A stretch of 64,000 nt of DNA from positions 32,773 to 96,772 of the forward strand of contig JAGOSO010000001.1 of the NCBI GenBank assembly GCA_018062285.1, written 5' to 3'. A program made the translations under genes and the position numbers. Each line of letters begins with the position of its first letter. Position 1 is the first letter of the stretch. This stretch comes from Minisyncoccota bacterium. Lineage in GTDB: Bacteria > Patescibacteriota > Minisyncoccia > 2-02-FULL-40-12 > GWA2-44-9. Shown in pieces: positions 1,279 through 62,710 of this stretch. The notes below the pieces were generated by a model, which saw only the letters and a list, made by a program, of their open reading frames with translations, was not told the origin of the DNA and ran no database searches.

Positions 1279-1320
1279 GAACAGAGATTTAGAACGAAAT
1301 TATTCGTTACAAATCTCTGT
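1279..1320. promoter_or_regulatory. 42-bp near-perfect inverted repeat (AACAGAGATTTGTAACGAA-TAAT-TTCGTTCTAAATCTCTGTT) in the nadD upstream region
   Basis: 19-bp arms with 2 mismatches and a 4-nt centre, read directly from the sequence. It lies between the G/C hairpin at 1333-1368 and the nadD RBS. It does not fit the GT-N7-AC NrtR motif. Confidence 0.3.
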
Positions 1321-2412: not shown

Positions 2413-2539
2413 TTCTTCCTCTCCTTCTCTTTTGTAAAGAACCTTTTCCTTGCGTTTTCGAATAAAACAAGGGAATTATGGCCCATCAGCCCCAATTCTC
2501 TTGTCTCATTAAAACCTTCTCAAATTAAGCCATATAATA

Positions 2540-2570
2540 CATTAAAAATGGCCAAATGTCAACGAATAAC
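2540..2570 (-). promoter_or_regulatory. sigma-70-like promoter (TTGACA-N17-TATTAT) for the 1378..2412 gene
   Basis: Minus-strand sequence cgTTGACAtttggccatttttaatgTATTATatgg, about 130 nt upstream of the start codon. Confidence 0.4.
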
Positions 2571-2600
2571 CCTATGTCCCATCTTACTCCCACGAGCCTG

Positions 2601-2621
2601 TTATTGTCAATAGTACACTAA
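2601..2621. promoter_or_regulatory. NrtR-type operator (TTATTGT-CAATAGT-ACACTAA; GT-N7-AC core), slightly degenerate
   Basis: Same 21-bp palindrome family as 3368-3388, 7745-7765 and 7791-7811. Lies upstream of the PncA-like 1378..2412 gene. Its reverse complement carries a TTGACA -35 hexamer followed 17 nt later by GTAAGA/TAAGAT. Confidence 0.5.
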
Positions 2622-2635
2622 CTCTTGGCAAAAAA

Positions 2636-3358
2636 TTAAAGAACATCAATCTGCATAACTCGACCAGAACTAAACTTGTACAATTGAGCTGGTCGCCAAC
2701 GCTGGCCACGACGCTCATTTGCCGACTTCTCCAAGACATCAAGCTTTAATATCTTCTTTCTAAAATTTCTCTTATCCACTCCCCTATCAAGGATAGCCTC
2801 ATAGGCATTCTCGAGTTCAGTTAAAGTAAATTCGTGAGGCATTAATTTACTGATGATGGTGGTAAAGGCAATCTTCGATCTTAATCGTTCAAGACCAACA
2901 GATATAATTTGGCGATGATCATAAGCCAACTTTGGCAAAGCACTCACAGGAAACCACTGAGACACGTCAGAATCTTTTTGCTCTTCTTTTGAAAAACTAG
3001 CCCATGGAGCAAGAGCTAAATAAGCTACTGCAACAACACGGCCACGAGGATCACGCTTAACTTCACTGAAAGTATAAAGTTGTTCCAAATAAATATTTCT
3101 TGGATCAATATGACCTTTGTCTTTTATAATGCGCCTTGTTGCTTCTTCGGCGTTTTCTTCTGGATGAATAAGCCCGCCAGGCAAACCATGAATATTATTA
3201 AAATAGGGCGGAAGGTTAACTGGTATTAAACGAACATACAACATGCCATCACGGAAAGTAAAAAGAACTGTATCCGTAGCGAGAACAGCAAAACGAATCT
3301 TTGATGTTGAATTTTTAGATGTGGCTTTAGTAGTTGCCATATAGAGACATCTTATCAT
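2636..3358 (-). CDS. nrtR: Nudix-domain transcriptional regulator, NrtR family (ADP-ribose-responsive repressor of NAD metabolism)
   Basis: N-terminal Nudix box GLPGGLIHPEENAEEATRRIIKDKGH (Gx5Ex7REUxEExGU). C-terminal ~90 aa is winged-helix-like with NFRKKILKL...RPAQLYKF. Flanked by NrtR-type operators. Probable real start is M7 at 3340; the transcript looks leaderless because the -10 TAAGAT overlaps the first in-frame ATG. Confidence 0.65.
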   Translation of the reverse strand: MIRCLYMATTKATSKNSTSKIRFAVLATDTVLFTFRDGMLYVRLIPVNLPPYFNNIHGLPGGLIHPEENAEEATRRIIKDKGHIDPRNIYLEQLYTFSEVKRDPRGRVVAVAYLALAPWASFSKEEQKDSDVSQWFPVSALPKLAYDHRQIISVGLERLRSKIAFTTIISKLMPHEFTLTELENAYEAILDRGVDKRNFRKKILKLDVLEKSANERRGQRWRPAQLYKFSSGRVMQIDVL

Positions 3359-3367
3359 GTTTCAATC

Positions 3368-3388
3368 TTAGTGTCAATAGTACACTTA
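3368..3388. promoter_or_regulatory. NrtR-type operator (TTAGTGT-CAATAGT-ACACTTA) overlapping the -35 of the nrtR promoter (autoregulation)
   Basis: Palindrome TAGTGT-N7-ACACTA. On the minus strand the site contains TTGACA, then 17 nt, then TAAGAT immediately before the nrtR start. Confidence 0.55.
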
Positions 3389-6858: not shown

Positions 6859-7686
6859 CTACTTCATGAAATCGACAGAGTTCGTGACGGTCATTCCCAG
6901 ACGCGTCATGTCTTTGAGCCACGCACTGGCAATCGCTGGGAAGTCGACGACCCCCGGGATAGCCGGCACAGGACTCATGCAGTCTTCGAGCAGGTGGAAC
7001 TTCTTGATGTGTTCCTGACCGATGTTCTTCGCGATCTGATTGACCGTGGTCAGCACGCAGTGACTGGAAGCTTCGCCGCCAACCAGAACAATGTCGGCTT
7101 CGGCCATGGTGTTCAGGAACTCCGTGTTCAAACCCGTCGAAGGGTCATCGGGGTCAGGAACTTCGGCCATGAGCGCGCCATAGTGTTCGGTCCAGGGATT
7201 CGAGCCCTTGGTCACGTAGTCGACCATGGCGAATTCCTTGTCCGACCAATGCTGAAGTGCTTCGTTCAGAACAGAGTGGACGTTGTGTCCCCATGTTCCG
7301 ATGAGGCAATGCGCCGGCCAGATGCAAATCTGGTACAGACCCGATGCTTCGAGCGTCTTGGCATAGGCCAAGGCACGCGCTCGGAATTGCGGATTGCGCG
7401 TGGTCCAGATTCCGGCTTCGATGTCCGACGCCGAAATGATCGTGAACGGGTTCGGCTGTTTGCCGCGCTGGTCCATCCAGAAAACCGGATGGGCGATGTC
7501 GAGCAGACGATGGCTGTCCAACGTCACGTGGATATCGTCGAGCTTGTGCCCGATTCGATCCACGAGCTTGGCCAACCGCTTCATGTCCGCATCAGCTCCA
7601 GGAACCGGCAACGTCGCGCCGGGGATGTCGCAGAAGTCGTTCTGCGGATCAATCACCAACAAATGCACCTTGAGAACTTTGCTCAT
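6859..7686 (-). CDS. pncA: PncA-like nicotinamidase / isochorismatase-family amidohydrolase
   Basis: 275 aa. N-terminal LLVIDPQNDFC (PncA VDxQNDF catalytic-Asp motif). Also LDSHRLLDIAHP (metal-ligand DxH...H pattern), K in YVTKGSNP, catalytic Cys in GGEASSHCV. First gene of the operon that continues into vWA, PP2C and kinase. Confidence 0.7.
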   Translation of the reverse strand: MSKVLKVHLLVIDPQNDFCDIPGATLPVPGADADMKRLAKLVDRIGHKLDDIHVTLDSHRLLDIAHPVFWMDQRGKQPNPFTIISASDIEAGIWTTRNPQFRARALAYAKTLEASGLYQICIWPAHCLIGTWGHNVHSVLNEALQHWSDKEFAMVDYVTKGSNPWTEHYGALMAEVPDPDDPSTGLNTEFLNTMAEADIVLVGGEASSHCVLTTVNQIAKNIGQEHIKKFHLLEDCMSPVPAIPGVVDFPAIASAWLKDMTRLGMTVTNSVDFMK

Positions 7687-7744
7687 AACTACCTCTTCTT
7701 TCCTTTGTTTGATTGTTAACGAGCTGTCCGTGTCTTATTTGTAC

Positions 7745-7765
7745 ATAGTGTATTTAGTACACTAT
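7745..7765. promoter_or_regulatory. NrtR-type operator (ATAGTGT-ATTTAGT-ACACTAT) near the -10/+1 of the pncA-like operon promoter
   Basis: Perfect 7-bp arms TAGTGT(A)/ACACTA with a 7-nt spacer (GT-N7-AC core). It sits about 45-60 nt upstream of the 7686 start codon. Confidence 0.5.
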
Positions 7766-7790
7766 GAGGGAAGACTAGCAGACCCTTGTC

Positions 7791-7811
7791 TTAGTGTCAA
7801 TAGTACACTTA
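7791..7811. promoter_or_regulatory. NrtR-type operator (TTAGTGT-CAATAGT-ACACTTA) upstream of the pncA-like/TerY-P operon, divergent to ychF
   Basis: Identical to the site at 3368-3388. Contains a TTGACA -35 on the minus strand. Confidence 0.5.
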
Positions 7812-7908
7812 TTAACAGGGGCAGGAGAGGGGATTTAAAAAATCTTTTAGAAATAAATAAAAACTATGACATGGTTGGTTTTTCGTGGTTTTCTGGTACA
7901 ATAAAGGC

Positions 7909-8995
7909 CATGTTATCAATCGGAATCGTGGGTTTGCCAAACGTTGGGAAGAGTACCCTCTTCAAGGCACTGACCAATAAACAAATAGATATTCAGAACT
8001 ATCCTTTCACCACCATCGACCCAAATGTCGGTGTTGTTGCCGTACCCGATGAGCGTATCGACAAGTTGGCCGAATTCTCGGGGACAAAAAAGAAAGTCTT
8101 CACAACTATCGAATTTATCGACATTGCCGGCCTAGTTAAGGGCGCTTCTCAGGGCGAAGGTTTGGGTAATAAATTTTTAGCCAACATTCGTGAGGCTGAT
8201 GCTATCGCCCAAGTTGTTCGTGCTTTCAACGACGACAATATTACCCACGTTCACAGTCGCGTAAATCCAGCCGAAGATATCGGAATCATAAATACTGAGC
8301 TCATTCTTGCTGACTCTGATACCGTAGCAAAGCGCATGGAAAAAACTTCTAAGCTAGCTCGTGCTGGTGATAAACTTGGTGTCCTTGAAATGGCTGGCCT
8401 TGAAAGATTCAAGAAACAACTAGATGCAGGCAATCTTCTCTATCATCTAACCTTAACGGAAGACGAGCAAAGGTTGATGAAAGAACTCAATCTCCTTACA
8501 GGTAAAAAATTCGTTTATGTTGTAAATGTTTCTGAGGACCAGCTCATTAGTCAGTGGCAGCCACCCCAAGAACTCATTGAGGCTATGGGTGGATCGCCTT
8601 ACGTTATCATGTGCAACAAGCTTGAATTAACCCTCTCTGAAGTTTCTCCGGAAGAAAAAGTTGAATATTTAAAAGAATTTAATCTACCAGAATCTGGCTT
8701 AGACACTTTAATTAAAAAAGGATATTACACTCTCGGACTTTTAACTTTCCTAACCACTGGTGTTGAAGAAACTCGCGCCTGGACCGCTCACCAAGGCGAC
8801 TTAATCCCTGTTGCTTCTCGTGCCATCCACACTGACTTTGAACGCCTCTTTATCCGCGCCGAAGTCATCAACTGGCAAGTCTTATTAGAAGCCGGATCAT
8901 ACGCCAACGCTCGCACCAAAGGCCTCGTCAAAATCGTCGGCCGAGACTACGTTATTCAAGAAGGCGACGTCGTAGATATACTCATTGGTAAATAA
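7909..8995 (+). CDS. ychF: ribosome-binding ATPase YchF (Obg-family GTPase)
   Basis: [22 protein letters not shown] (G1/P-loop), [12 protein letters not shown], and a C-terminal TGS-like domain. The longer track ORF 7394..8995 is an upstream read-through. A TG-extended -10 TACAAT sits 8 nt before the ATG, so the transcript looks leaderless. Confidence 0.9.
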
Positions 8996-11121: not shown

Positions 11122-12312
11122 TCAACCCCACCTGGCTTCTTTGTCGAGAGGGATGAAGTATGCCACTGACACCTTCGAGGTGAGTCGCCTCGCTCGTCCG
11201 GTATCAATGATGACTCGGTCGCCTTTCGACGGGTACCACCGATGGCTACGATCGTCGAACACATACTTATCCCCGTGGATCGTATTCGCCGCCATCTGAC
11301 GCACGGTACCCCTGGTCTTGTGCTGGAATGAATCCTCATAGACCAGGCCGGTGTTGTAACCAGCCCTGAAAAGCCTCTCGTAAAAGTATTCCCGAGAGGC
11401 ATCCCAGCACCATGTGGACTGCAGATCCTTCTCGCCCGCCTTGATGGCGACCATGAAAAGCGTCATTCCAGGAAGCTTTTCGAGGATGCCTCGACCCGTT
11501 GCTCGATGAGGATCAAGAACGTTCTTGAACACCAGATCGACTGCGAGCTCACAGAGGAGAGTCGTGTTGTTGCCGTCTGCCGCAACCCGAGACACGATCC
11601 GCGCCTTCTCGTCGTTCTGGATGCGAACGAAGTGTCCGAACCCCAGACAGCGAAGCGAAGTGAGGTGTTCCGCCGCCGCCTTGCAGATCTCGACCACCGA
11701 TTCTTCGTCGAGACGCGTTTTGATGTTCTGTTGGTAGCGCAGAACACTGGTCGGAGCCTTGCGGGCCGCCATCAGCATGAGATCTTTCAGCGTGGCATCA
11801 TCAAAGATACTGCCATCTGAATTCGTCGTGCCGAGATCAAGACCGCGCGCGAGGAAGTCGTCCAACATGTTGGAGCATCCCTCGCGAACAACAATCTTGT
11901 CCAGTCGAGCATAGATCATGCCCGCCAGATCTTCGCGAGCAATCCCCGACTCGAGTCCTGCCGCTGCCAGGCCGAGATAGGCGTAGTTGAGACCCAAGTA
12001 GGCCTCACGAACCAACTCGACGCGACGGTCAACCGGCAAAAGGGTGATGAACCCACCTGACAGCGCCGCCCGCACGAAGTGACCGACATCCAGATGATTC
12101 CTCAGAAACACCATCGGATCGATGTCGCCGACCGTAAAGACGTCGGCGTAACGAGGACGGTTATAGTTGAACAACCAGTACGTGCCGACGGAATCTCTCA
12201 CCATGATCTCATCTTCCGTACGGACGGCCTGGCTGAGAAAATCAGCGGTGAGAGTTTTGGAAGCCCAACGGGCCTCCAGCTCAGCGAGCATCTTCTTCGT
12301 GGCTTCAGTCAT
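11122..12312 (-). CDS. hypothetical protein (396 aa), higher-GC accessory gene; shares a 5-prime leader element with the SemiSWEET-like gene at 62171..62458
   Basis: Start set at ATG 12312 (MTEATKKMLAELE...) because GGAGG lies 4 nt upstream. The track ORF's earlier M at 12339 lies upstream of that RBS. I recognise no domain. Predicted helical, about 55% GC against about 43% in core genes. Confidence 0.5.
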   Translation of the reverse strand: MTEATKKMLAELEARWASKTLTADFLSQAVRTEDEIMVRDSVGTYWLFNYNRPRYADVFTVGDIDPMVFLRNHLDVGHFVRAALSGGFITLLPVDRRVELVREAYLGLNYAYLGLAAAGLESGIAREDLAGMIYARLDKIVVREGCSNMLDDFLARGLDLGTTNSDGSIFDDATLKDLMLMAARKAPTSVLRYQQNIKTRLDEESVVEICKAAAEHLTSLRCLGFGHFVRIQNDEKARIVSRVAADGNNTTLLCELAVDLVFKNVLDPHRATGRGILEKLPGMTLFMVAIKAGEKDLQSTWCWDASREYFYERLFRAGYNTGLVYEDSFQHKTRGTVRQMAANTIHGDKYVFDDRSHRWYPSKGDRVIIDTGRARRLTSKVSVAYFIPLDKEARWG

Positions 12313-12391
12313 AGATCCTCCGACGTGCCCTATTAGCACGGTGAGTTAGCGAAATCCAGGTACCGCCTGGCGCGGATCTTACGTTTTCTTG

Positions 12392-12451
12392 GGTTGTTAA
12401 AGAAACCAACCTTGTCTTTATATTATATCATAAAATACACCAAAAAGTCAA
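12392..12451 (-). promoter_or_regulatory. promoter (TTGACT-N18-TATAAT) plus conserved palindromic leader element GGTTGGTTTCTTTAACAACC just downstream of the -10
   Basis: On the minus strand: -35 at 12446-12451, -10 at 12422-12427, palindrome GGTTG-N10-CAACC at 12392-12411, followed by AAAAC GTAAG. The same arrangement recurs at 62506-62564. Confidence 0.55.
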
Positions 12452-12541: not shown

Positions 12542-13033
12542 CTAGATCATGTCGATGAGCGAGTCGATGGCCTGAGCCCCCTGGGGCTTACTGGCACCTT
12601 TCTTTGAGGTGCGCCGATCCATCTCTTCCCGAGCCCAGACAAGCAGTCTGTGCATCTCTCCGTAAATCTCAGAGGCCTCTTCAAGATCGATGAGCTCGCC
12701 TGTCCGGCTGGCACCGTCAATCTTGTCGACTTGATCTTCAAGGGTATTGAGGATGTCATCGTGATAGTTAAGGTCGTAGAGCTGGGTCAACTTCTTTTCA
12801 AAAAACTTCGGAGAGTTGCGGAAAAAAACCGCAATAATCTTCCGAACGTCAGCATTGATCTTTACCAGAATCTTGATAGCGCCCGACTCGTCGTTGTTCC
12901 TCTTGAGAGCCCCGGCCCTCTCCAGCTCTTTCTTGATTCCATCGGGCATAACGAAACCCTGAAAAGACTGAGAAAGAACCACCACCGACCTGACCATGGT
13001 CGTCGCCTCTTCTAACGTAAATTGATCAGCCAT
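12542..13033 (-). CDS. hypothetical protein (163 aa), own promoter and terminator
   Basis: GGAGG RBS. Promoter TTGACT-N16-CATAAT at 13080-13107. No recognisable domain. Weak similarity (LVWxRE segment) to the next gene's product. Confidence 0.45.
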   Translation of the reverse strand: MADQFTLEEATTMVRSVVVLSQSFQGFVMPDGIKKELERAGALKRNNDESGAIKILVKINADVRKIIAVFFRNSPKFFEKKLTQLYDLNYHDDILNTLEDQVDKIDGASRTGELIDLEEASEIYGEMHRLLVWAREEMDRRTSKKGASKPQGAQAIDSLIDMI

Positions 13034-13624: not shown

Positions 13625-13754
13625 TGTCAGTTCCTTCGATTTTCAATGAGCGAATTTGCTCACGGAAGCCCTATCTCAAGAGCTTCAACGTATTTATATT
13701 ATAGCACAATATATGCCAAAAAGTCAATAGTAATTTTACCTTAAAATTTGTATT

Positions 13755-14550: not shown

Positions 14551-14654
14551 CTTTTTTCTCCACCCGTTAAGGGCATCGTTCGCTCAGGATTGAGACGAAC
14601 TAGGACTTACGCTAACCATGCTATTATACAACACAAATCCCCATTAAGTCAATA

Positions 14655-18689: not shown

Positions 18690-18995
18690 AAAACGGCGCT
18701 CTCTCGTAAGAGAACGCCGGTCTCGGAAGTGGCAATACTGTTCGTGGGAGTTTGTTTGCGGCCATCCCTTTCAGGATCTCCCGGGCGCGGTCACCCATGG
18801 CCTACTCTTTGCGTCGAGACTTCCGGCTCAACGACTTGGTTCACCTACGCATGATCTTCGACCTCCACGGTCAGCCCCTCGGGGCGGTTGTGTGGACCCG
18901 GGCGGACTTTATTTCGTATCCACCCTCTGTTGAATTTTAGGCCTTACGCGGGACCTGCCCGCTTGGTTGTGCCATATTCAGTTTAGTCGCCGAAC
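18690..18995 (-). ncRNA. candidate GC-rich (~60% GC) structured non-coding RNA / long 3-prime UTR ending in a terminator
   Basis: No credible ORF in any frame (only Arg-rich wrong-frame ORFs). Multiple strong stems, for example GGCCATCCC...GGGATGGCC and CGUUGAGCC-GGAA-GUCUCGACG. Ends with GGCGTTCTCTTACGAGAGAGCGCC plus T-run at 18690-18730. GC content is far above the local core-gene background. Confidence 0.3.
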
Positions 18996-28796: not shown

Positions 28797-31700
28797 TTAC
28801 TCAAAATTATGACTGTTTAGTAGCTCTTGGCTGAGCACCTCGCGGTGCGTACACCTAAGCCCTATCAACCTCGTAATCTACAAGGAGTCTAAGAAATCTA
28901 ATCTTGGGGCCCGTTTCGTACTTATATGCTTTCAGTACTTATCGGCACCGAACATAGCTACCCAGCGCTGCTCTTGGCAGAACAGCTGGCAGACCAGAGG
29001 TTCGTTCATCTCGGTCCTCTCGTACTAGAGACAACCCCCCTCAAATTTCAACGCCCGCACCAGATATGGACCAACCTGTCTCACGACGGTTTGAACCCAG
29101 CTCGCGTACCCTTTTAATTGGCGAACAGCCAAACCCTTGGGGCCTTCTTCAGTCCCAGGATAGGGCGAGCCGACATCGAGGTGCCGAACACTGCCGTCGC
29201 TGTGAACGCTCGGGCAGTACTAGCCTGTTATCCCCGGAGTAGCTTTTATTTGTTGATCTTCGCCCCTCCTACGAGGTAGCGTCGGTTCACTAAGTTCTGC
29301 TTTCGCATCTGCGCGACACATCCGTCTTGCAGTTAAGCTGGCTTTTGCCTTTACGCTATCGTTCCGATGTCCATCCGGAACTAGCCAACCTTGATAAACG
29401 CCTCCATTACTCTTTAGGAGGCAAGTGCCCCACTTAAACTGCCTGCCAGGCACTGTCTCGATAACACCCTAACAAGGTGTAACAAATAAAAATCTAAAAT
29501 CACTCCAACTAAATTAGTACAATAATGCACTATTTAGTATTACCAGAGTTCACTTTAGCTTTTTATGTTTCACCCTCTTAGGGTGCTACCGGTTAGAGCT
29601 ACAAATCGTTAAAATGGGTGTTTCATTGGCGGATCCATCGGGCCCGAGAGCACGACTTCAAATCCTCCCCACTACGCTACGTATAACAACTCGTAGACCA
29701 ATACCAAGCTGCAGTGAAGCTTCCGGGGTCTTTCCGTCTAGGTGCGGGTAGTCGGCATCTTTACCGACATTGCATTTTCACCGAGCTATTGGCTGAGACA
29801 GTCCCCCAGTCGTTCCGCTATTCATGCGCGTGGGAACTTACCCCACAAGGTATTTCGCTACTTTTAGACAGTTATAGTTACTGCCGTCGTTCACCGGCGC
29901 TTCGGGCCTCCCCAGTACATCTTGCGACATACCAGTTCAACCGTTAACGTTCCGGCACCGGACAAGCGTCACCCCGTATACATCGCCTTGCGGCTTAGCA
30001 CGGAGTTGTGTTTTTGATAAACAGTCGCCAGGGGTTCTTTCGCTGCGGCCCCCATCATCTTGCGATGAAAAGGGCAGGCCTTATACCGAAGGTACGGCCG
30101 CTTTTTTGCCGAGTTCCTTAGCCAATAATCACTCGTTCGCCTTAGTACACTGATACTAGTCCACCTGTGTCGGTTTTGCGGTACGTTTCCAATGTTGATA
30201 ATCTTAGAAGTTTTTCTTGGAAGCGTGCTCAGTTGAATTTCGTCTTGCGACAATTCGTAAGGCGCTCGGATGTGTCTTGCGACTGGACGTGGATTTTCCT
30301 GCGTCCCACCCTCACGCTATACCCGTTAAATCCGATTATACGGTCAACCTACAACTCTCCGTCACTCCTTCGATCAACACTGGAGGGCCAGAATATTAAC
30401 TGGCTGTCCATTATGATCGGTGGCCCTAAAGCCACCTTACACTTAGGCACGCCTAACCCTCCGATGATTGCCATCGCGGAGGAAACCTTGGACTTACGGC
30501 GGTGATGGTTTTCACATCACATGCGGTTACTCATCCCAACATTCTCCCTTCTCAACGCTCCAGCAAACTTCACAGTTCACCTTCACAGCAGTTGAGAATG
30601 CTCCCCTACCACTCGTACAAGTAAATGTACGAATCCACAATTTCGGTATTATGCTTAGCCCCTATACATTTTCGGCGCACATTGCCTCTCCGTCTTGCGA
30701 CGGAATCGAGTAGTGAGCTATTACGCACTCTTTAAAGGATGGCTGCTTCTAAGCCAACCTCCTACCTGTCTAAGGCAACGAACTTCCTTTTCACTTAGCA
30801 TAAATTTTGGGACCTTAATTTGTGATCTGGGCTGTTTCCCTTGCGTACACGAAGCTTAGCCCTCGCGTACTCACTGGCATAGATTTCATGAAGGTATTCG
30901 GAGTTTATTTGGTAGGCCTACCATTGCTGGCACGGCTAACCAATTAGTGCTCTACCCCCTTCATTACTCCATACCGCTGTCCCTAAAGACATTTCGGGGA
31001 GAACCAGCTATTACCAAGCTCGATAAGCTTTTCACTTCTAACCACAAGTCATCCGATGACATTGAGCGATCAAACGGTTCGGGCCTCCACTTATCTTTCG
31101 ATAAGCTTCACCCTGCTCATGGTTAGCTCGCCTGGCTTCGGGTCTTACCTATACCGCATAAAGACATTTCACCTATAAGCCCTAAAGCTTGTAGGTGAAA
31201 GTTCTTAAACGCGCTATTAACACTCGGTTTCCCTGTCCATACGTCCCAGTGGAACTTATAGTGCGGTGTAAGTAAACTCGTCGGGTCATTCTTCAATAGG
31301 CACACCGTTACCCGACGTCTTGCGACGGCAGGCTCCGGCTCTTTGTAGGCACACGGTTTCAGTTTCTATTTCACTCCCCTCGCCGGGGTTCTTTTCGCCT
31401 TTCCCTCACGGTACTGGTTCACTATCGATCACGAATAGTATTTAGCCTTATCCAGTAGTATGGACAAATTCACCCCGGACATTCTTATCCTGGGCTACTC
31501 AGGTAACAATACAGAAGTTCGTTTGGTTTCGGATACAGGACTGTCACCTGCTATGGTCGGCTGTTCCAAGGCCGTTCTCCTACCGCACGAATTTTTAACT
31601 TCTTATGAAGTTTTAACTCCACGCACGATGTGTCTGCGCGAAGTTAAAATTTCAAGTGTACTATCCCTATTACCCCACCCTCATTTTAGTAAACTAATTT

Positions 31701-31982
31701 GAAAATGGTTTAGGCTGTGCCGCTTTCGCTCGCCGCTACTCACGGTATCTAATTCTATTTATTTTCCTTTGGGTACTGAGATGTTTCACTTCCCCAAGTA
31801 TGCTTCCTGCTTGCGCAGAATAATCATGGTTCACATGATTGGGTTGCCCCATTCGGACATCTCCGGGTCATAGCTTGCTCGACAGCTCACCGAAGCTTTT
31901 CGCAGTCACGCAACGTCCTTCATAGCCTATTCGTGTCAAGGCATCCTCCGTGCGCCCTTTAATGTGGTCATTTTGCTTGACC
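28797..31982 (-). rRNA. rrl: 23S ribosomal RNA (about 3.2 kb; includes an AT-rich roughly 110-nt expansion segment near 29465-29580)
   Basis: The 5-prime end GGUCAAGCAAAAUGACCACAUUAAAGGGCGCACGGAGGAUGCCUUGAC is at about 31982. Domain V sequences are present (GGAUAACAGGCUAGUACUGCCCGAGCGUUCACAGCGACGGCAGUGUUCGGCACCUCGAUGUCGGCUC). The 3-prime helix-1 partner is near 28797-28815. End coordinates are approximate to about 15 nt. Confidence 0.85.
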
Positions 31983-34678: not shown

Positions 34679-36925
34679 TTAGGCGAGTCGGATAAGTCCG
34701 AGAACTTTTCGGCGACCAGCATACAAGGCAGACGACAACAATCCACCAAATCCAGCTAAGGCAAAAGCATCAGCAGGTCCAGTTTTCACATGCAAGGCAT
34801 TAGCTAAAACTTGATTGCCGATTGTAATGTAAACTGGATTTGAAGTTATGGAGCCAGTGTTATCAGCACGGGTTGTTGCAGTATTAACCAACTGTTGATT
34901 AAGTGAAACACCTGCATTGATGGTGGCATAGAATTTCATCTCGGCCTTTTGGCCTGAAGACAAACTTCCGATATTTAAGCCACCAGAAACAATACCATCA
35001 GTCGTAACAATATTATTTAATGTTGTACTGTGAGCAGTGTAAGTCATCCCAGCAGGCAAAACATCGGTAACAACAACATTATTTAAGTTTGTGTTGTAAG
35101 GGGCAACGACAGTAATAGTGAATTCGATACCATCACCTGCATGTGCTCCAAAAGATGTACTCTCGACATTATTACCAGCAGAAATATTACGGCCAGTCTT
35201 TTGAATTGTTAGAGCGTTTGAAACTACGTTAGCGAGCGTGACTGAAGCAGTGTCAGTTACCGTTGTCGCATTACTTGCATAAGCCGAGGCGCTATTAGTA
35301 AGGGTAGCGTAACCATAGTTATACTGGTTGTATCCCTGACCAACCGTAGCTCTAAAACGAAGTGTAACAGAGCGAGTTGGGTAGAATGTACCAAGACTTA
35401 AGCCACCAGAAGTTAATCCGTCAGCCACATAAGAATAGTCATTAGTGGTACTACCTGAGACATATCCCAAACCATAAGGAAGGGTGTCCGTGACTCTAAC
35501 GCTGTTTGCATTCTCGTAACTAGCATTGGAGACGCGGAGAATAAATTCTACGGTATCACCAACTTTCGCATTAACTGATTTTGACTCACTTGAATTCGAT
35601 GTAATATTTCTGACGGTCTTTGTAATATTTAGGGTCGAAGTTAGATCCGTAACAATACATGGGCCAGTTACATAAACAACTGTGTTTGCGGAAGCGTAAC
35701 CACTTGGATAGCCATAGGCGGTAGCAGTATAAGTTGTGGTCTGAGAAGGGGTCACAGTCCTGCTTCCACTTAGAGCCACGTTACCCAATGAGCTTACAGA
35801 AACCTGAGAAGCATTCTGGGAAGACCATGCCAAAGTGGCTGACTGGCCAATACAGACTGAAGCTGGGCTGGCTGAAATAGAAACTGTCGGAGTTGGTGTT
35901 GGTGTTGGTGTTGGTGTTGGAGTTGGAGTTGGAGTTGGGGTTGGAGTTGGTGTCGGAGTTGGAGTTGGTGTCGGAGTTGGAGTTGGTGTCGGAGTTGGAG
36001 TTGGTGTCGGAGTTGGAGTTGGTGTCGGAGTTGGAGTTGGTGTCGGAGTTGGAGTTGGTGTCGGAACAAAACCACACAATTCACCGCCACCGTACTTAAC
36101 ATCAAATACTCTTCGGCCAGCAGAAGCATAATCTGGAGGAGTTAATGGGTAACCTTCAATCAAATCAACTTGATAGCGACAAGCTGGAACACCAACAACT
36201 AATACATTCGTATCTATAGTTTGATGAGGGTTTAAAGTTACGGTTTTAGAATCAAACAATGTTTGGGTAGAAATCCAATCAGATCCAAGACTAAACATTT
36301 TGTAAGAAACTAAACTAACAGTATAAGTACAATTAGAAGTATTAGTGATGCGTCCAGTTGCAGTTGTAGAACCAGCTGAGACAACAGAGCCAACAACATT
36401 ATCAATAACCGATCCGGTACAAGTTGGAGGAGGAGTTGGGGTTGGAGAATATGTTGGGGTTGGGGTTGGAGTTGGAGTCGGTGTTGGAGAATAAGTTGGG
36501 GTTGGGGTTGGGGTTGGGGTTGGAACACCACAAGCATTACTACGAACAGTTCGAGAATCCAAAACAGTAGAATCACTTGAAACAACCAAGCGATACTGAC
36601 AATCAGGAACGTTGATGTGTAATTCTAAGCTTTCAAAAGGACCAACAACAGTAGAAGCAGAATCGTAATGGGAATTGTTTGATGTGAGATAGTCATCCAT
36701 TGCCACATTAAAAGAACAAGCCGAGTTGTTAATAATTATACCCAAAGCGCCACCACCAAATTCACCAGTGGAAACGATTGATGCGGTCAAGGCTGACTGG
36801 GGGCCCCCACAATCCTCCGTACTAGCCTTAGATAACTTCATTACTGAAAAAGTAACAGTAACAGCTAGAGCAACAACTAAAGTTGCCTTAGTAATTCTGT
36901 TCATATTTGTGTTGTTCATATTCAT
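34679..36925 (-). CDS. large secreted cell-surface protein with (TP)n linkers and C-terminal sortase-type sorting signal
   Basis: Signal peptide [36 protein letters not shown] (start taken at M23 of the track ORF 34679..36991). Contains a roughly 40x TP repeat and DUF11-like repeat domains. C-terminus [28 protein letters not shown] has a xKTGP motif, a hydrophobic helix and a basic tail. The sortase gene is adjacent. Confidence 0.6.
35880..36075. repeat. tandem nucleotide repeat (period 6/18, GGTGTCGGAGTTGGAGTT...) encoding the (TP)n linker
   Basis: Direct inspection shows about 30 consecutive GTTGGNGT(T/C)GGA units. They are in-frame inside the surface-protein CDS, and the out-of-frame track ORFs there are artefacts. 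Confidence 0.85.
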
Positions 36926-57217: not shown

Positions 57218-57252
57218 ACGGGTTGAGCGCTTACGTGCTCAACCCGTTTTAG
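57218..57252 (+). terminator. bidirectional terminator (AACGGGTTGAGCGCTTACGTGCTCAACCCGTTTT)
   Basis: Perfect 13-bp stem. Serves rpmB on plus and the 57249..57506 gene on minus. Confidence 0.6.
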
Positions 57253-61679: not shown

Positions 61680-61875
61680 TGATAAAATGTAACAGGAATT
61701 TATTTAGTTCGCTAGTCGCAAAACCTCACCCCTTTCTCGACCCTCTGGTTCGGAATGAAATAACCCCTTGCCTCCCCGCATAAAATTCTGCTGAATTTTT
61801 GCTTTGATCTCGGCCCGTCGGCCTGCGAACAGTCGGCAATAGGTTATTCCATTCCTCCCCACTATTTTTATTGGA

Positions 61876-61917
61876 ATTAAAAAGGCCCGCCACACGGGTC
61901 GCCGCGTGGCGGGACCT
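61876..61917 (-). terminator. terminator (GGTCCCGCCACGCGGCGACCCGTGTGGCGGGCC plus T5), repeated family
   Basis: Near-identical to the terminator at 13139-13169. Lies downstream of the 61930..62152 gene. Confidence 0.6.
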
Positions 61918-61929
61918 TCGTGCTGCGGG

Positions 61930-62152
61930 CTACATGGTCACCAGAAACCCAGGATTGTGAATGTGGTTGAGGTGTGGGGCCAAGCGACAAGATTCAGCCG
62001 TCACGACCATGCCATCGGTTCGCCGACCATTGATATGAATCTCCGGACCGGGCCGAGTGGTTGTCGCATGATATTCCTTCTTCAGAATCGACAAATCTCC
62101 TGTCGAGTCGATCTGGATAAGCCATTGGCTATCCTCAAAGATCACTCTCATC
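61930..62152 (-). CDS. hypothetical small protein (73 aa), co-transcribed with the SemiSWEET-like gene
   Basis: GGAGAGAAAG RBS directly before the ATG at 62152, 18 nt after the upstream stop. Paralogous N-terminus to the 14188..14550 product. Confidence 0.45.
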
Positions 62153-62170
62153 TTTCTCTCCTTCTGCGCC

Positions 62171-62458
62171 TTAGGCGCGTGGACGATACTTGCGGTAAGC
62201 GATGAGGATGACCAAGGACACAAAGGCGCTGAGGCCCATGCACCACATGAACATGTCATTGTGAGTGAAAAATCCTTCAACGGAAAATGACAGCTGAAGA
62301 ATCATGTACAACCAGAACATGCCGGGGCTGATGGCCGCGACATCCTTGGTACGCACGATCTTGATCAACTGCGGAAGCATCGCCCCCACATTGATCACAC
62401 CAGCGAGCCAGATGAACTGGTGCCAGTGGATCATGAGGGCAAACTCTTCTCTCGTCAT
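62171..62458 (-). CDS. SemiSWEET / PQ-loop family small transporter (3-TM, 95 aa)
   Basis: GAMLPQLIKIVRTKDVAAISPGMFWLYM matches the SemiSWEET PQ motif region (FLPQ...R...TK...IS..M). Three predicted TM helices. Confidence 0.65.
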   Translation of the reverse strand: MTREEFALMIHWHQFIWLAGVINVGAMLPQLIKIVRTKDVAAISPGMFWLYMILQLSFSVEGFFTHNDMFMWCMGLSAFVSLVILIAYRKYRPRA

Positions 62459-62505
62459 TACCTAATCCTTCCTGCGCTTCAACGCCGCTAACTTACGAAT
62501 TTTTT

Positions 62506-62564
62506 GGTTGTTAAAGAAACCAACCTAGCCTATATATTATACTCCTTTTGGTCAAAAAAGTCAA
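62506..62564 (-). promoter_or_regulatory. promoter (TTGACT-N17-TATAAT) plus the same GGTTGGTTTCTTTAACAACC palindromic leader element as at 12392-12411
   Basis: On the minus strand: -35 at 62559-62564, -10 at 62536-62541, palindrome at 62506-62525, followed by AAAAAATTCGTAAG (the other copy has AAAACGTAAG). Confidence 0.55.
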
Positions 62565-62592
62565 ATAGGCCCAGAGGGCCTATTTGATAGAA
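62565..62592 (-). terminator. terminator hairpin (AATAGGCCC-tct-GGGCCTATT plus T-run) overlapping the downstream -35
   Basis: Follows the structured element downstream of nrdJ. Confidence 0.5.
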
Positions 62593-62608
62593 AAACAGTG
62601 AGAATTTG

Positions 62609-62700
62609 AGCTTTAGTCTTAGCCGACCGTCGCAGGCGGGTAGCCGAGGGCAGAGCGGAAAAGTCAGCAGACTTTTAACGCGGGTCGGCGGGACTAAAGC
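62609..62700 (-). ncRNA. candidate structured RNA element immediately downstream of nrdJ
   Basis: 10-bp outer stem AGCUUUAGUC/GACUAAAGCU encloses inner stems CCGCCGACC/GGUCGGCGG-like and AAAAGUC-agcag-GACUUUU. No ORF. Confidence 0.25.
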
Positions 62701-62710
62701 TTAAATTCAA

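Follow-up and report, generated by a model that had tools for sequence, protein, structure and literature searches.

A conserved 20-bp element at two predicted transcription starts in a Candidate Phyla Radiation bacterium, a possible DNA operator shared by a SemiSWEET-type operon and the gene for a predicted alpha-solenoid/OB-fold protein

The stretch of DNA analysed here (the window, 64 kb in length, from a Candidate Phyla Radiation (CPR) bacterium) contains two transcription units that carry the same short element in their leaders. One comprises a gene for a 396-aa protein, and the other a gene for a 95-aa PQ-loop/SemiSWEET-like membrane protein followed by a 73-aa ORF (Table 1). Each of these units is insulated by an upstream intrinsic terminator, and the SemiSWEET unit is also closed by a terminator downstream, past the 73-aa ORF, in keeping with an earlier assignment of the element to two unlinked genes. 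Both predicted promoters match the sigma-70 consensus at 11 of 12 positions, and the second overlaps the tail of the nrdJ terminator (62561-62587). The strings TTGACTTTTT and TATAATATA are common to both sites and occur at other, unrelated promoters in the window as well, so we regard them as part of the general promoter consensus of this genome and place them outside the specific element. Elsewhere in the window, a 23S rRNA match (28797-31965, minus strand) measures 3169 nt against a 2925-nt model and thus probably carries insertions; since no 16S rRNA was found anywhere in the 64 kb, the rRNA genes appear to be unlinked.

Table 1. Positions of the features discussed in the text, numbered from the first letter of the window.
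Feature	Coordinates	Strand	Basis or remark
Promoter 1, TTGACT-18-TATAAT with TG, 11/12	12422..12451	-	sigma-70 consensus scan
Element copy 1	12392..12411	-	covariance-model match 60.3 bits
CGTAAG box 1	12378..12383	-	8 nt downstream of copy 1
Structured 5' UTR of 396-aa gene	12313..12376	-	kept in all three orthologs
Hairpin H2 of 396-aa 5' UTR	12356-12370	-	
Anti-SD CUC of 396-aa 5' UTR	12343-12345	-	
Hairpin H3 of 396-aa 5' UTR	12324-12340	-	
SD GGAGG of 396-aa 5' UTR	12317-12321	-	
396-aa gene	11122..12312	-	predicted alpha-solenoid and C-terminal S1-like OB fold
Promoter 2, TTGACT-17-TATAAT, 11/12	62536..62564	-	sigma-70 consensus scan
Element copy 2	62506..62525	-	identical to copy 1; SemiSWEET operon transcript start; covariance-model match 60.1 bits
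CGTAAG box 2	62492..62497	-	8 nt downstream of copy 2
95-aa PQ-loop/SemiSWEET-like membrane protein	62171..62458	-	Pfam/NCBIfam
73-aa ORF, second gene of SemiSWEET operon	61930..62151	-	
Intrinsic terminator closing SemiSWEET operon	61886..61913	-	
nrtR, NrtR/AraR-family regulator	2636-3358		NrtR_WHD E=1.7e-22; NCBIfam match
NrtR-type site	2602-2620	-	overlaps -35 box of 344-aa/nadD operon promoter
NrtR-type site	3369-3387	-	overlaps -35 box of nrtR's own promoter
NrtR-type tandem sites	7746-7764, 7792-7810	-	before 275-aa isochorismatase-like gene
275-aa gene, VIDPQNDFC signature	6859-7686	-	weak Isochorismatase match E=3e-4, below cut-off

The product of the 95-aa gene scores 25.9 bits against the PQ-loop family PF04193 (cut-off 22), 22.3 bits against MtN3_slv, just below that family's cut-off of 23.7, and 28.9 bits against NCBIfam SemiSWEET_2, below the cut-off of that model. 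By these profile scores it is a PQ-loop/SemiSWEET-type protein. The 73-aa ORF gave no family match and has no recognised homolog. The operon sits between nrdJ and comEC in an interval that behaves as a variable slot (window 61680-62710; positions 1918-2306 of locus L193 and 1455-2009 of locus L194), occupied by SemiSWEET and the 73-aa ORF in the window and by unrelated small genes in two relatives, and provided with its own consensus promoter and terminator in every case. At least one of the two units that host the element is therefore located in a variable gene slot.

NCBI lists the 396-aa protein as hypothetical, from a Candidatus Pacebacteria MAG, and it has no family match. Structure prediction, which the preliminary description had proposed as a means of identifying it, gave a high-confidence model with an alpha-solenoid over approximately residues 1-316 and a C-terminal OB fold of the S1/cold-shock type. 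The only close homolog (P0002, at locus L001 of GCA_034680565.1) shares 51% protein identity; a third ortholog (P0018, locus L072), 39% identical to the window protein, emerged from an exhaustive HMMER search along with about 90 distant, unannotated relatives. The alpha-solenoid/OB-fold family comprises about 95 sequence clusters, all of them unannotated. Judging from the modelled fold, a nucleic-acid-binding role for this protein is more likely than an enzymatic one; since the model carries no sign of an enzyme, the idea of a transporter and an enzyme jointly serving the salvage of one metabolite finds no support. A family of helical proteins of 163-195 aa accompanies the alpha-solenoid/OB gene in 3/3 genomes (window 12542-13033, where the member is a 163-aa protein; L001; L072), which points to a conserved pairing of the two genes.

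The 5' UTR of the 396-aa gene has a structure with counterparts at positions 4942-5003 of L001 and 425-489 of L072. In the three-ortholog alignment its 13 pairs are 100% paired, with four of them compensatory (two per hairpin), while slid controls collapse. A CUC(ACC) anti-SD segment pairs with the GGAGG ribosome-binding site (CUC/GAG), and the structure could be a translational switch or a thermosensor. Since the structure is present in L072, where the element is missing, the element is a separable module placed in front of it.

The element itself is the 20-mer GGTTGGTTTCTTTAACAACC, present in the window as two exact copies, both on the minus strand (0 expected). With up to three mismatches allowed no further match was found in the window, and 100 shuffles gave none, so the identity of the two sites first described stands. 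The description of the element as palindromic holds for its outer 5+5 bases (GGTTG/CAACC), which form a perfect inverted repeat with half-site centres 15 bp apart (approximately 1.5 helical turns), but not for the central 10 nt, GTTTCTTTAA, which are asymmetric. This asymmetric centre is invariant and lies in the same orientation relative to transcription at 3/3 sites, the third being the copy in L001. Identity between the two window leaders extends over 21 nt, an A followed by the 20-mer, and ends exactly at the inverted arms; these 21 nt plus CGTAAG make up the specific signal that the two leaders share. The gap from the -10 box to the element is 10 nt at both window sites, within the 10-12 nt previously given, and 11 nt in L001. 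Counted from the transcript start predicted for the 396-aa gene, copy 1 spans approximately +4 to +24.

Several other candidates were set aside. A third GGTTG-N10-CAACC, at 35326, falls within a 770-aa ORF and was therefore treated as chance, and a site with six mismatches at 13748 is the 3' half of an intrinsic terminator. Readings of the element as an integron attC site or a terminator were rejected on sequence grounds alone (no integrase, a weak stem, and a sense strand without a T tract), as was a leader peptide starting from the TTG inside the element, which has no SD and for which the frame of CGTAAG differs between the window and L001 because the spacing is 8 nt in the former and 6 nt in the latter.

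CGTAAG follows the window copies after the 8-nt spacers CAAGAAAA and AAAAAATT. The hexamer is moderately over-represented in the window (33 observed versus 21 expected), yet the probability that it turns up by chance in the 9 or so positions that follow a given site is only approximately 0.002. Box 1 is contiguous with a block, CGTAAGATCCGCGC, that is kept in the ortholog. An A-rich tract followed by CGTAAG had been noted behind both copies; the tract is present at both window sites (CAAGAAAA and AAAAAAUU) but is replaced by AGAUUU (DNA AGATTT) in L001, so that only the CGTAAG portion of this arrangement is conserved in the relative. At other places in the window, CGTAAG at 18705-18710 (plus strand) and 57230-57235 (minus strand) caps intergenic hairpins as C(GUAA)G, a GNRA tetraloop, the hairpin at 57230 having a T-run after it, and CGTAAG at 14606-14611 (minus strand) lies 12 nt past the -10 box of the promoter of a 120-aa gene. 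A C(GUAA)G tetraloop cap, the role that the hexamer has in two terminators of the window, was considered for the two leaders and rejected, there being no flanking stem.

The leader of the ortholog in L001 runs TTGACT...TATAAT, 11 nt, the identical 20-mer, 6 nt and CGTAAG. The spacers on both sides of the 20-mer have diverged between L001 and the window while the 20-mer is 100% identical, which points to selection rather than to recent common descent of the whole region. This comparison shows the element to be real and under selection, and we consider a common cis-regulatory role a fair inference given its conservation in the relative. At the third ortholog locus, L072, the 5' arm and the dyad are absent. 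The leader there reads TATAAT-tatat-GTTTCCTTAGCAAG... and contains an 11/14 match to the centre and 3' arm of the element, likewise 31 nt away from the conserved block further downstream. Although suggestive, this partial match was picked out post hoc; such matches are expected at a rate of approximately 0.4 per 6.7 kb by chance, and two others of 11/14 quality occur within L072 itself.

Further copies had been proposed as something to seek in relatives, and apart from the identical copy at the ortholog in L001 none came to light. The exact 20-mer, searched for in 185,579 species genomes (one per species), gave a single match, in a Bacteroidota coding region and attributable to chance. An 18-mer core had 60 matches in JGI metagenomes, 0 of them with a promoter, the outer arms or a CGTAAG tail, and these were judged from their sequence context to be chance; the matches to a 16-mer core in IMG/VR had neither the CGTAAG tail nor a promoter setting, and BLAST searches of phage and plasmid collections returned no relevant match to the element. 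A covariance model built from the three copies (two from the window and one from L001) found no diverged copy in the window and 13 related loci, where the next best score was 11.5 bits. Five SemiSWEET homolog loci, with proteins 52-58% identical, have short, unrelated leaders and no element, which argues against a general link between the element and SemiSWEET genes; it was absent at SemiSWEET homolog loci L064-L066, L068, L069 and L071. The nrdJ-comEC interval of two close relatives with NrdJ proteins 79-80% identical has a comparably strong promoter ahead of its small genes but contains neither a SemiSWEET gene nor the element. Given these scans, the element is confined to a narrow lineage. 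Moreover, since all three copies are identical, they allow no covariation. The preliminary description had stated that its proposal would fail if there were no other occurrences and no covariation, an outcome that it took to suit a DNA operator only, and this is largely what was found, the sole extra copy being the identical one at the ortholog.

We hypothesize that the 20-bp sequence is a DNA operator for a candidate repressor and overlaps the transcription start, a reading to which we assign a probability of roughly 0.45. A repressor operator at the start site was among the original suggestions, and it offers the best explanation of an inverted repeat at the start of two units. Located directly downstream of the -10 box, the element would lie inside the RNA polymerase footprint at two near-consensus and presumably strong promoters, where the GGTTG...CAACC dyad, once occupied by a protein, would keep polymerase from binding or from escaping the promoter. 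Such a block would co-repress the 396-aa gene and the SemiSWEET/73-aa operon until a signal releases the protein. Base rates favour such an arrangement, as 20-bp dyads shared between start sites are usually operators.

The geometry and conservation of the element are consistent with a DNA operator. The perfect 5+5 inverted repeat exactly bounds the 21-nt identity block of two otherwise unrelated leaders, the distance to the -10 box is nearly fixed (10, 10 and 11 nt) at 11/12 promoters, and the 20-mer is 100% conserved against 51% protein identity and diverged spacers. That L072 keeps the structured 5' UTR without the dyad argues that the element is independent of the gene-specific RNA. RNA-level signals are also missing, with an ordinary hairpin, loop-tail pairing at chance and no Rfam family, and the same genome offers a precedent in four NrtR operators that overlap consensus promoters. 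Other observations weigh against an operator. A Pfam scan of 49 window ORFs turned up no transcription factor besides NrtR; an invariant, sense-oriented asymmetric centre is not something that a symmetric dimer needs; half-site centres approximately 1.5 turns apart are unusual for a simple dimer on one face of the helix; and the dyad-less leader of L072 still matches the centre and 3' arm at 11/14 in the same 31-nt register. The variable spacing of CGTAAG (8, 8 and 6 nt) is awkward for a rigid protein-DNA contact, and the operator model leaves this hexamer unexplained; it may be an auxiliary contact or a separate RNA feature. The three copies, all identical, yield no statistics on variation, and no motif model of the element is derivable from them.

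These points against an operator favour recognition of the RNA by a protein, a reading that we consider possible although on the unlikely side. According to this alternative, a 5'-proximal hairpin (GGUUG/CAACC stem, loop GUUUCUUUAA) together with CGUAAG would be read by a trans-acting RNA-binding protein that acts on both operons through the stability or the translation of their mRNA. An invariant loop in the sense orientation at 3/3 sites and a CGUAAG kept at flexible spacing (8/8/6 nt) are in its favour, and the stem-less leader of L072 keeps GUUUCCUUAGCAAG (11/14) at the same register, although the chance expectation and post hoc nature of that match count here as well. The hairpin is present in the minimum-free-energy fold of every full leader and begins a few nt from the predicted 5' end; stem-loops near the 5' end of an mRNA can affect its decay. 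However, the stem is short (5 bp with a 10-nt loop, -5.5 kcal/mol) and its stability resembles that of shuffled sequence (z about 0 to -1.5), the identical copies provide no covariation, and the element lies approximately 45-80 nt from the ribosome-binding sites, and the three copies have no conserved pairing with these sites.

An obvious candidate for a protein that reads the hairpin, on the strength of its modelled fold, is the OB-fold protein encoded behind copy 1, as the element occurs on the 396-aa gene's own mRNA in two species. A candidate version of the alternative is autoregulation, in which the 396-aa protein would recognise both the leader of its own mRNA and that of SemiSWEET. Stated in full, a previously undescribed RNA-binding protein family (alpha-solenoid plus S1-like OB) would bind the loop GUUUCYUUARCAA in its own 5' UTR and in the SemiSWEET leader, a case of post-transcriptional autoregulation in a CPR bacterium; we regard this complete scenario as distinctly unlikely. 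The probability left over by all the readings considered in this text falls to other, unexplained functions of the element.

Less likely than a protein-bound RNA is a new riboswitch class of approximately 35 nt. The preliminary description had hinted at a leader hairpin with a pseudoknot-capable tail, loosely of the preQ1-I type. Spelled out, this would be a mini-riboswitch in which a 5-bp P1 encloses a 10-nt loop and, past a linker, the 3' CGUAAG pairs with CUU(U)A of the loop in an H-type pseudoknot; it would sense a metabolite imported by the SemiSWEET protein. The size of the module (34 nt in the window copies and 32 nt in the relative) and the order of its parts resemble preQ1-I; CUU/AAG plus A-U pairing is possible in 3/3 copies, and one of the two targets is a transporter. 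The best loop-tail duplexes of the three copies, however, have energies of -3.5, +0.4 and -1.6 kcal/mol, not better than those of shuffled tails, which were as good or better in 158/500 cases for window copy W1, 204/500 for L001 and 500/500 for W2 (the SemiSWEET copy), and the best duplex in W1 uses AAGAAA rather than CGUAAG. An Rfam search of both leaders at E<=10 returned no family, including preQ1-I/II/III and the pnuC (NAD+-II) motif, its sole match (rliH, 7.6 bits) being noise, and a whole-window Rfam scan at the gathering threshold found nothing at the element. Queuosine genes are absent from its vicinity, the downstream products being the PQ-loop protein, the 73-aa orphan and the alpha-solenoid/OB protein. 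Moreover, the A-rich linker is not conserved (AGAUUU in L001), there is no expression platform, with no terminator after the element and no conserved SD pairing found, and the module is carried by two lineages only; neither the third ortholog nor any of the SemiSWEET homolog loci inspected has it. The proposed preQ1-type pseudoknot is thus not borne out, and we give it a slim chance.

The NrtR/AraR-family regulator encoded in the window offers a further candidate for binding the element. Previous work described NrtR operators, sited between the promoter and the start codon, as 21-bp semi-palindromes built on a GT-N7-AC core, and found that NrtR regulons often include the NAD-precursor transporters niaP and pnuC (PMC2330246). 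The solved structures closest to the window NrtR are BtAraR and SoNrtR, and its recognition helix, DKRNFRK, is identical to that of BtAraR, for which contacts in the crystal structure define GTGT-N7-ACAC (PMC4666351). Four sites of this type occur in the window, all on the minus strand (0 expected), with the consensus (T/A)AGTGTACTA(TTG/AAT)ACA(C/A)TA, also written (T/A)AGTGTACTAttgACACTA and TAGTGTACTATTGACACTA. Going by their sequences and positions, these four sites are predicted to form a complete small NrtR regulon at NAD-salvage promoters. A gene for a nicotinate-nucleotide adenylyltransferase-like protein (nadD-like) adjoins nrtR, and the 275-aa gene product is a possible nicotinamidase.

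Other features were noted around this regulon. The 275-aa gene is hidden under an over-long plus-strand ORF call (7394-8995), in which the true start of YchF is probably close to 7900. At 1281-1320 (minus strand) a near-perfect AT-rich palindrome of 40 bp, ACAGAGATTTGTAACGAATAATTTCGTTCTAAATCTCTGT, separates the nadD-like gene (628-1233) from the terminator of the 344-aa gene. The leader of the 344-aa gene (2413-2600, minus strand) is approximately 150 nt long and contains a hairpin, CCTTGTTTTATTCGAAAACGCAAGG, at approximately 2448-2473, with no Rfam match at the gathering threshold. An operator reading in which this NrtR, encoded 9 kb away, binds the element and SemiSWEET is a PnuC-like NAD-precursor importer can appeal to the string GTtaaagaaAC (GT-N7-AC) within the 20-mer just downstream of the -10 box, and to the SWEET-like fold of PnuC, by which SemiSWEET could in principle import an NAD precursor, but it has a slimmer chance still and is in our judgement largely refuted: the genome's NrtR sites are a different motif, present four times at NAD-salvage promoters and nowhere near either element copy, and the element in the same register reads TTGT-N7-ACCA and lacks the Lys179-contacted G in both halves. 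This difference in sequence makes NrtR binding very unlikely. As for the target genes, the 396-aa protein is not an NAD enzyme.

CPR genomes encode very few regulators, and to our knowledge gene regulation in these bacteria is almost unexplored. The element links a SemiSWEET-type transporter to an uncharacterised protein that probably binds RNA, and so delimits a concrete, if putative, two-operon regulon that could be used to fish for the regulator and to guess the function of both products. If the element acts as RNA and is bound by the 396-aa protein, the two would constitute a new protein-RNA regulatory pair. As a lineage-restricted cis-element with three identical copies, its significance is local rather than general.

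Each of the known systems nearest to the element agrees with it in some features and differs in others. The element is like the preQ1-I riboswitch (RF00522) in size, in its 5-bp stem and loop of approximately 10 nt, and in having a 3' tail that possibly pairs with the loop, and unlike it in lacking a CM match, queuosine genes, a conserved A-rich tail and an expression platform, with loop-tail pairing not above chance. Like the autoregulatory leaders of RNA-binding proteins (e.g. those of ribosomal-protein and ThrRS genes), it places a conserved hairpin whose loop is invariant in the 5' UTR of a gene for a predicted RNA-binding protein; unlike them, it has a second target, SemiSWEET, with no functional relation to the first, and the protein belongs to an uncharacterised family. 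NrtR/AraR operators (PMC2330246, PMC4666351) resemble it in length, in being semi-palindromic, in the GT-N7-AC string and in their position between promoter and gene, whereas the element has no outer G in either half-site, and the axis about which it is most symmetric lies half a base pair off. When lac O1 and the NrtR/AraR sites are taken together as start-site operators, the element departs from them in a central 10 bp that is asymmetric yet invariant and in the extra CGTAAG 6-8 bp downstream. It shares with them a dyad of approximately 20 bp that lies in the interval from the -10 box to about +25 of a strong promoter, recurs at unlinked operons and is kept between species while its flanks drift.
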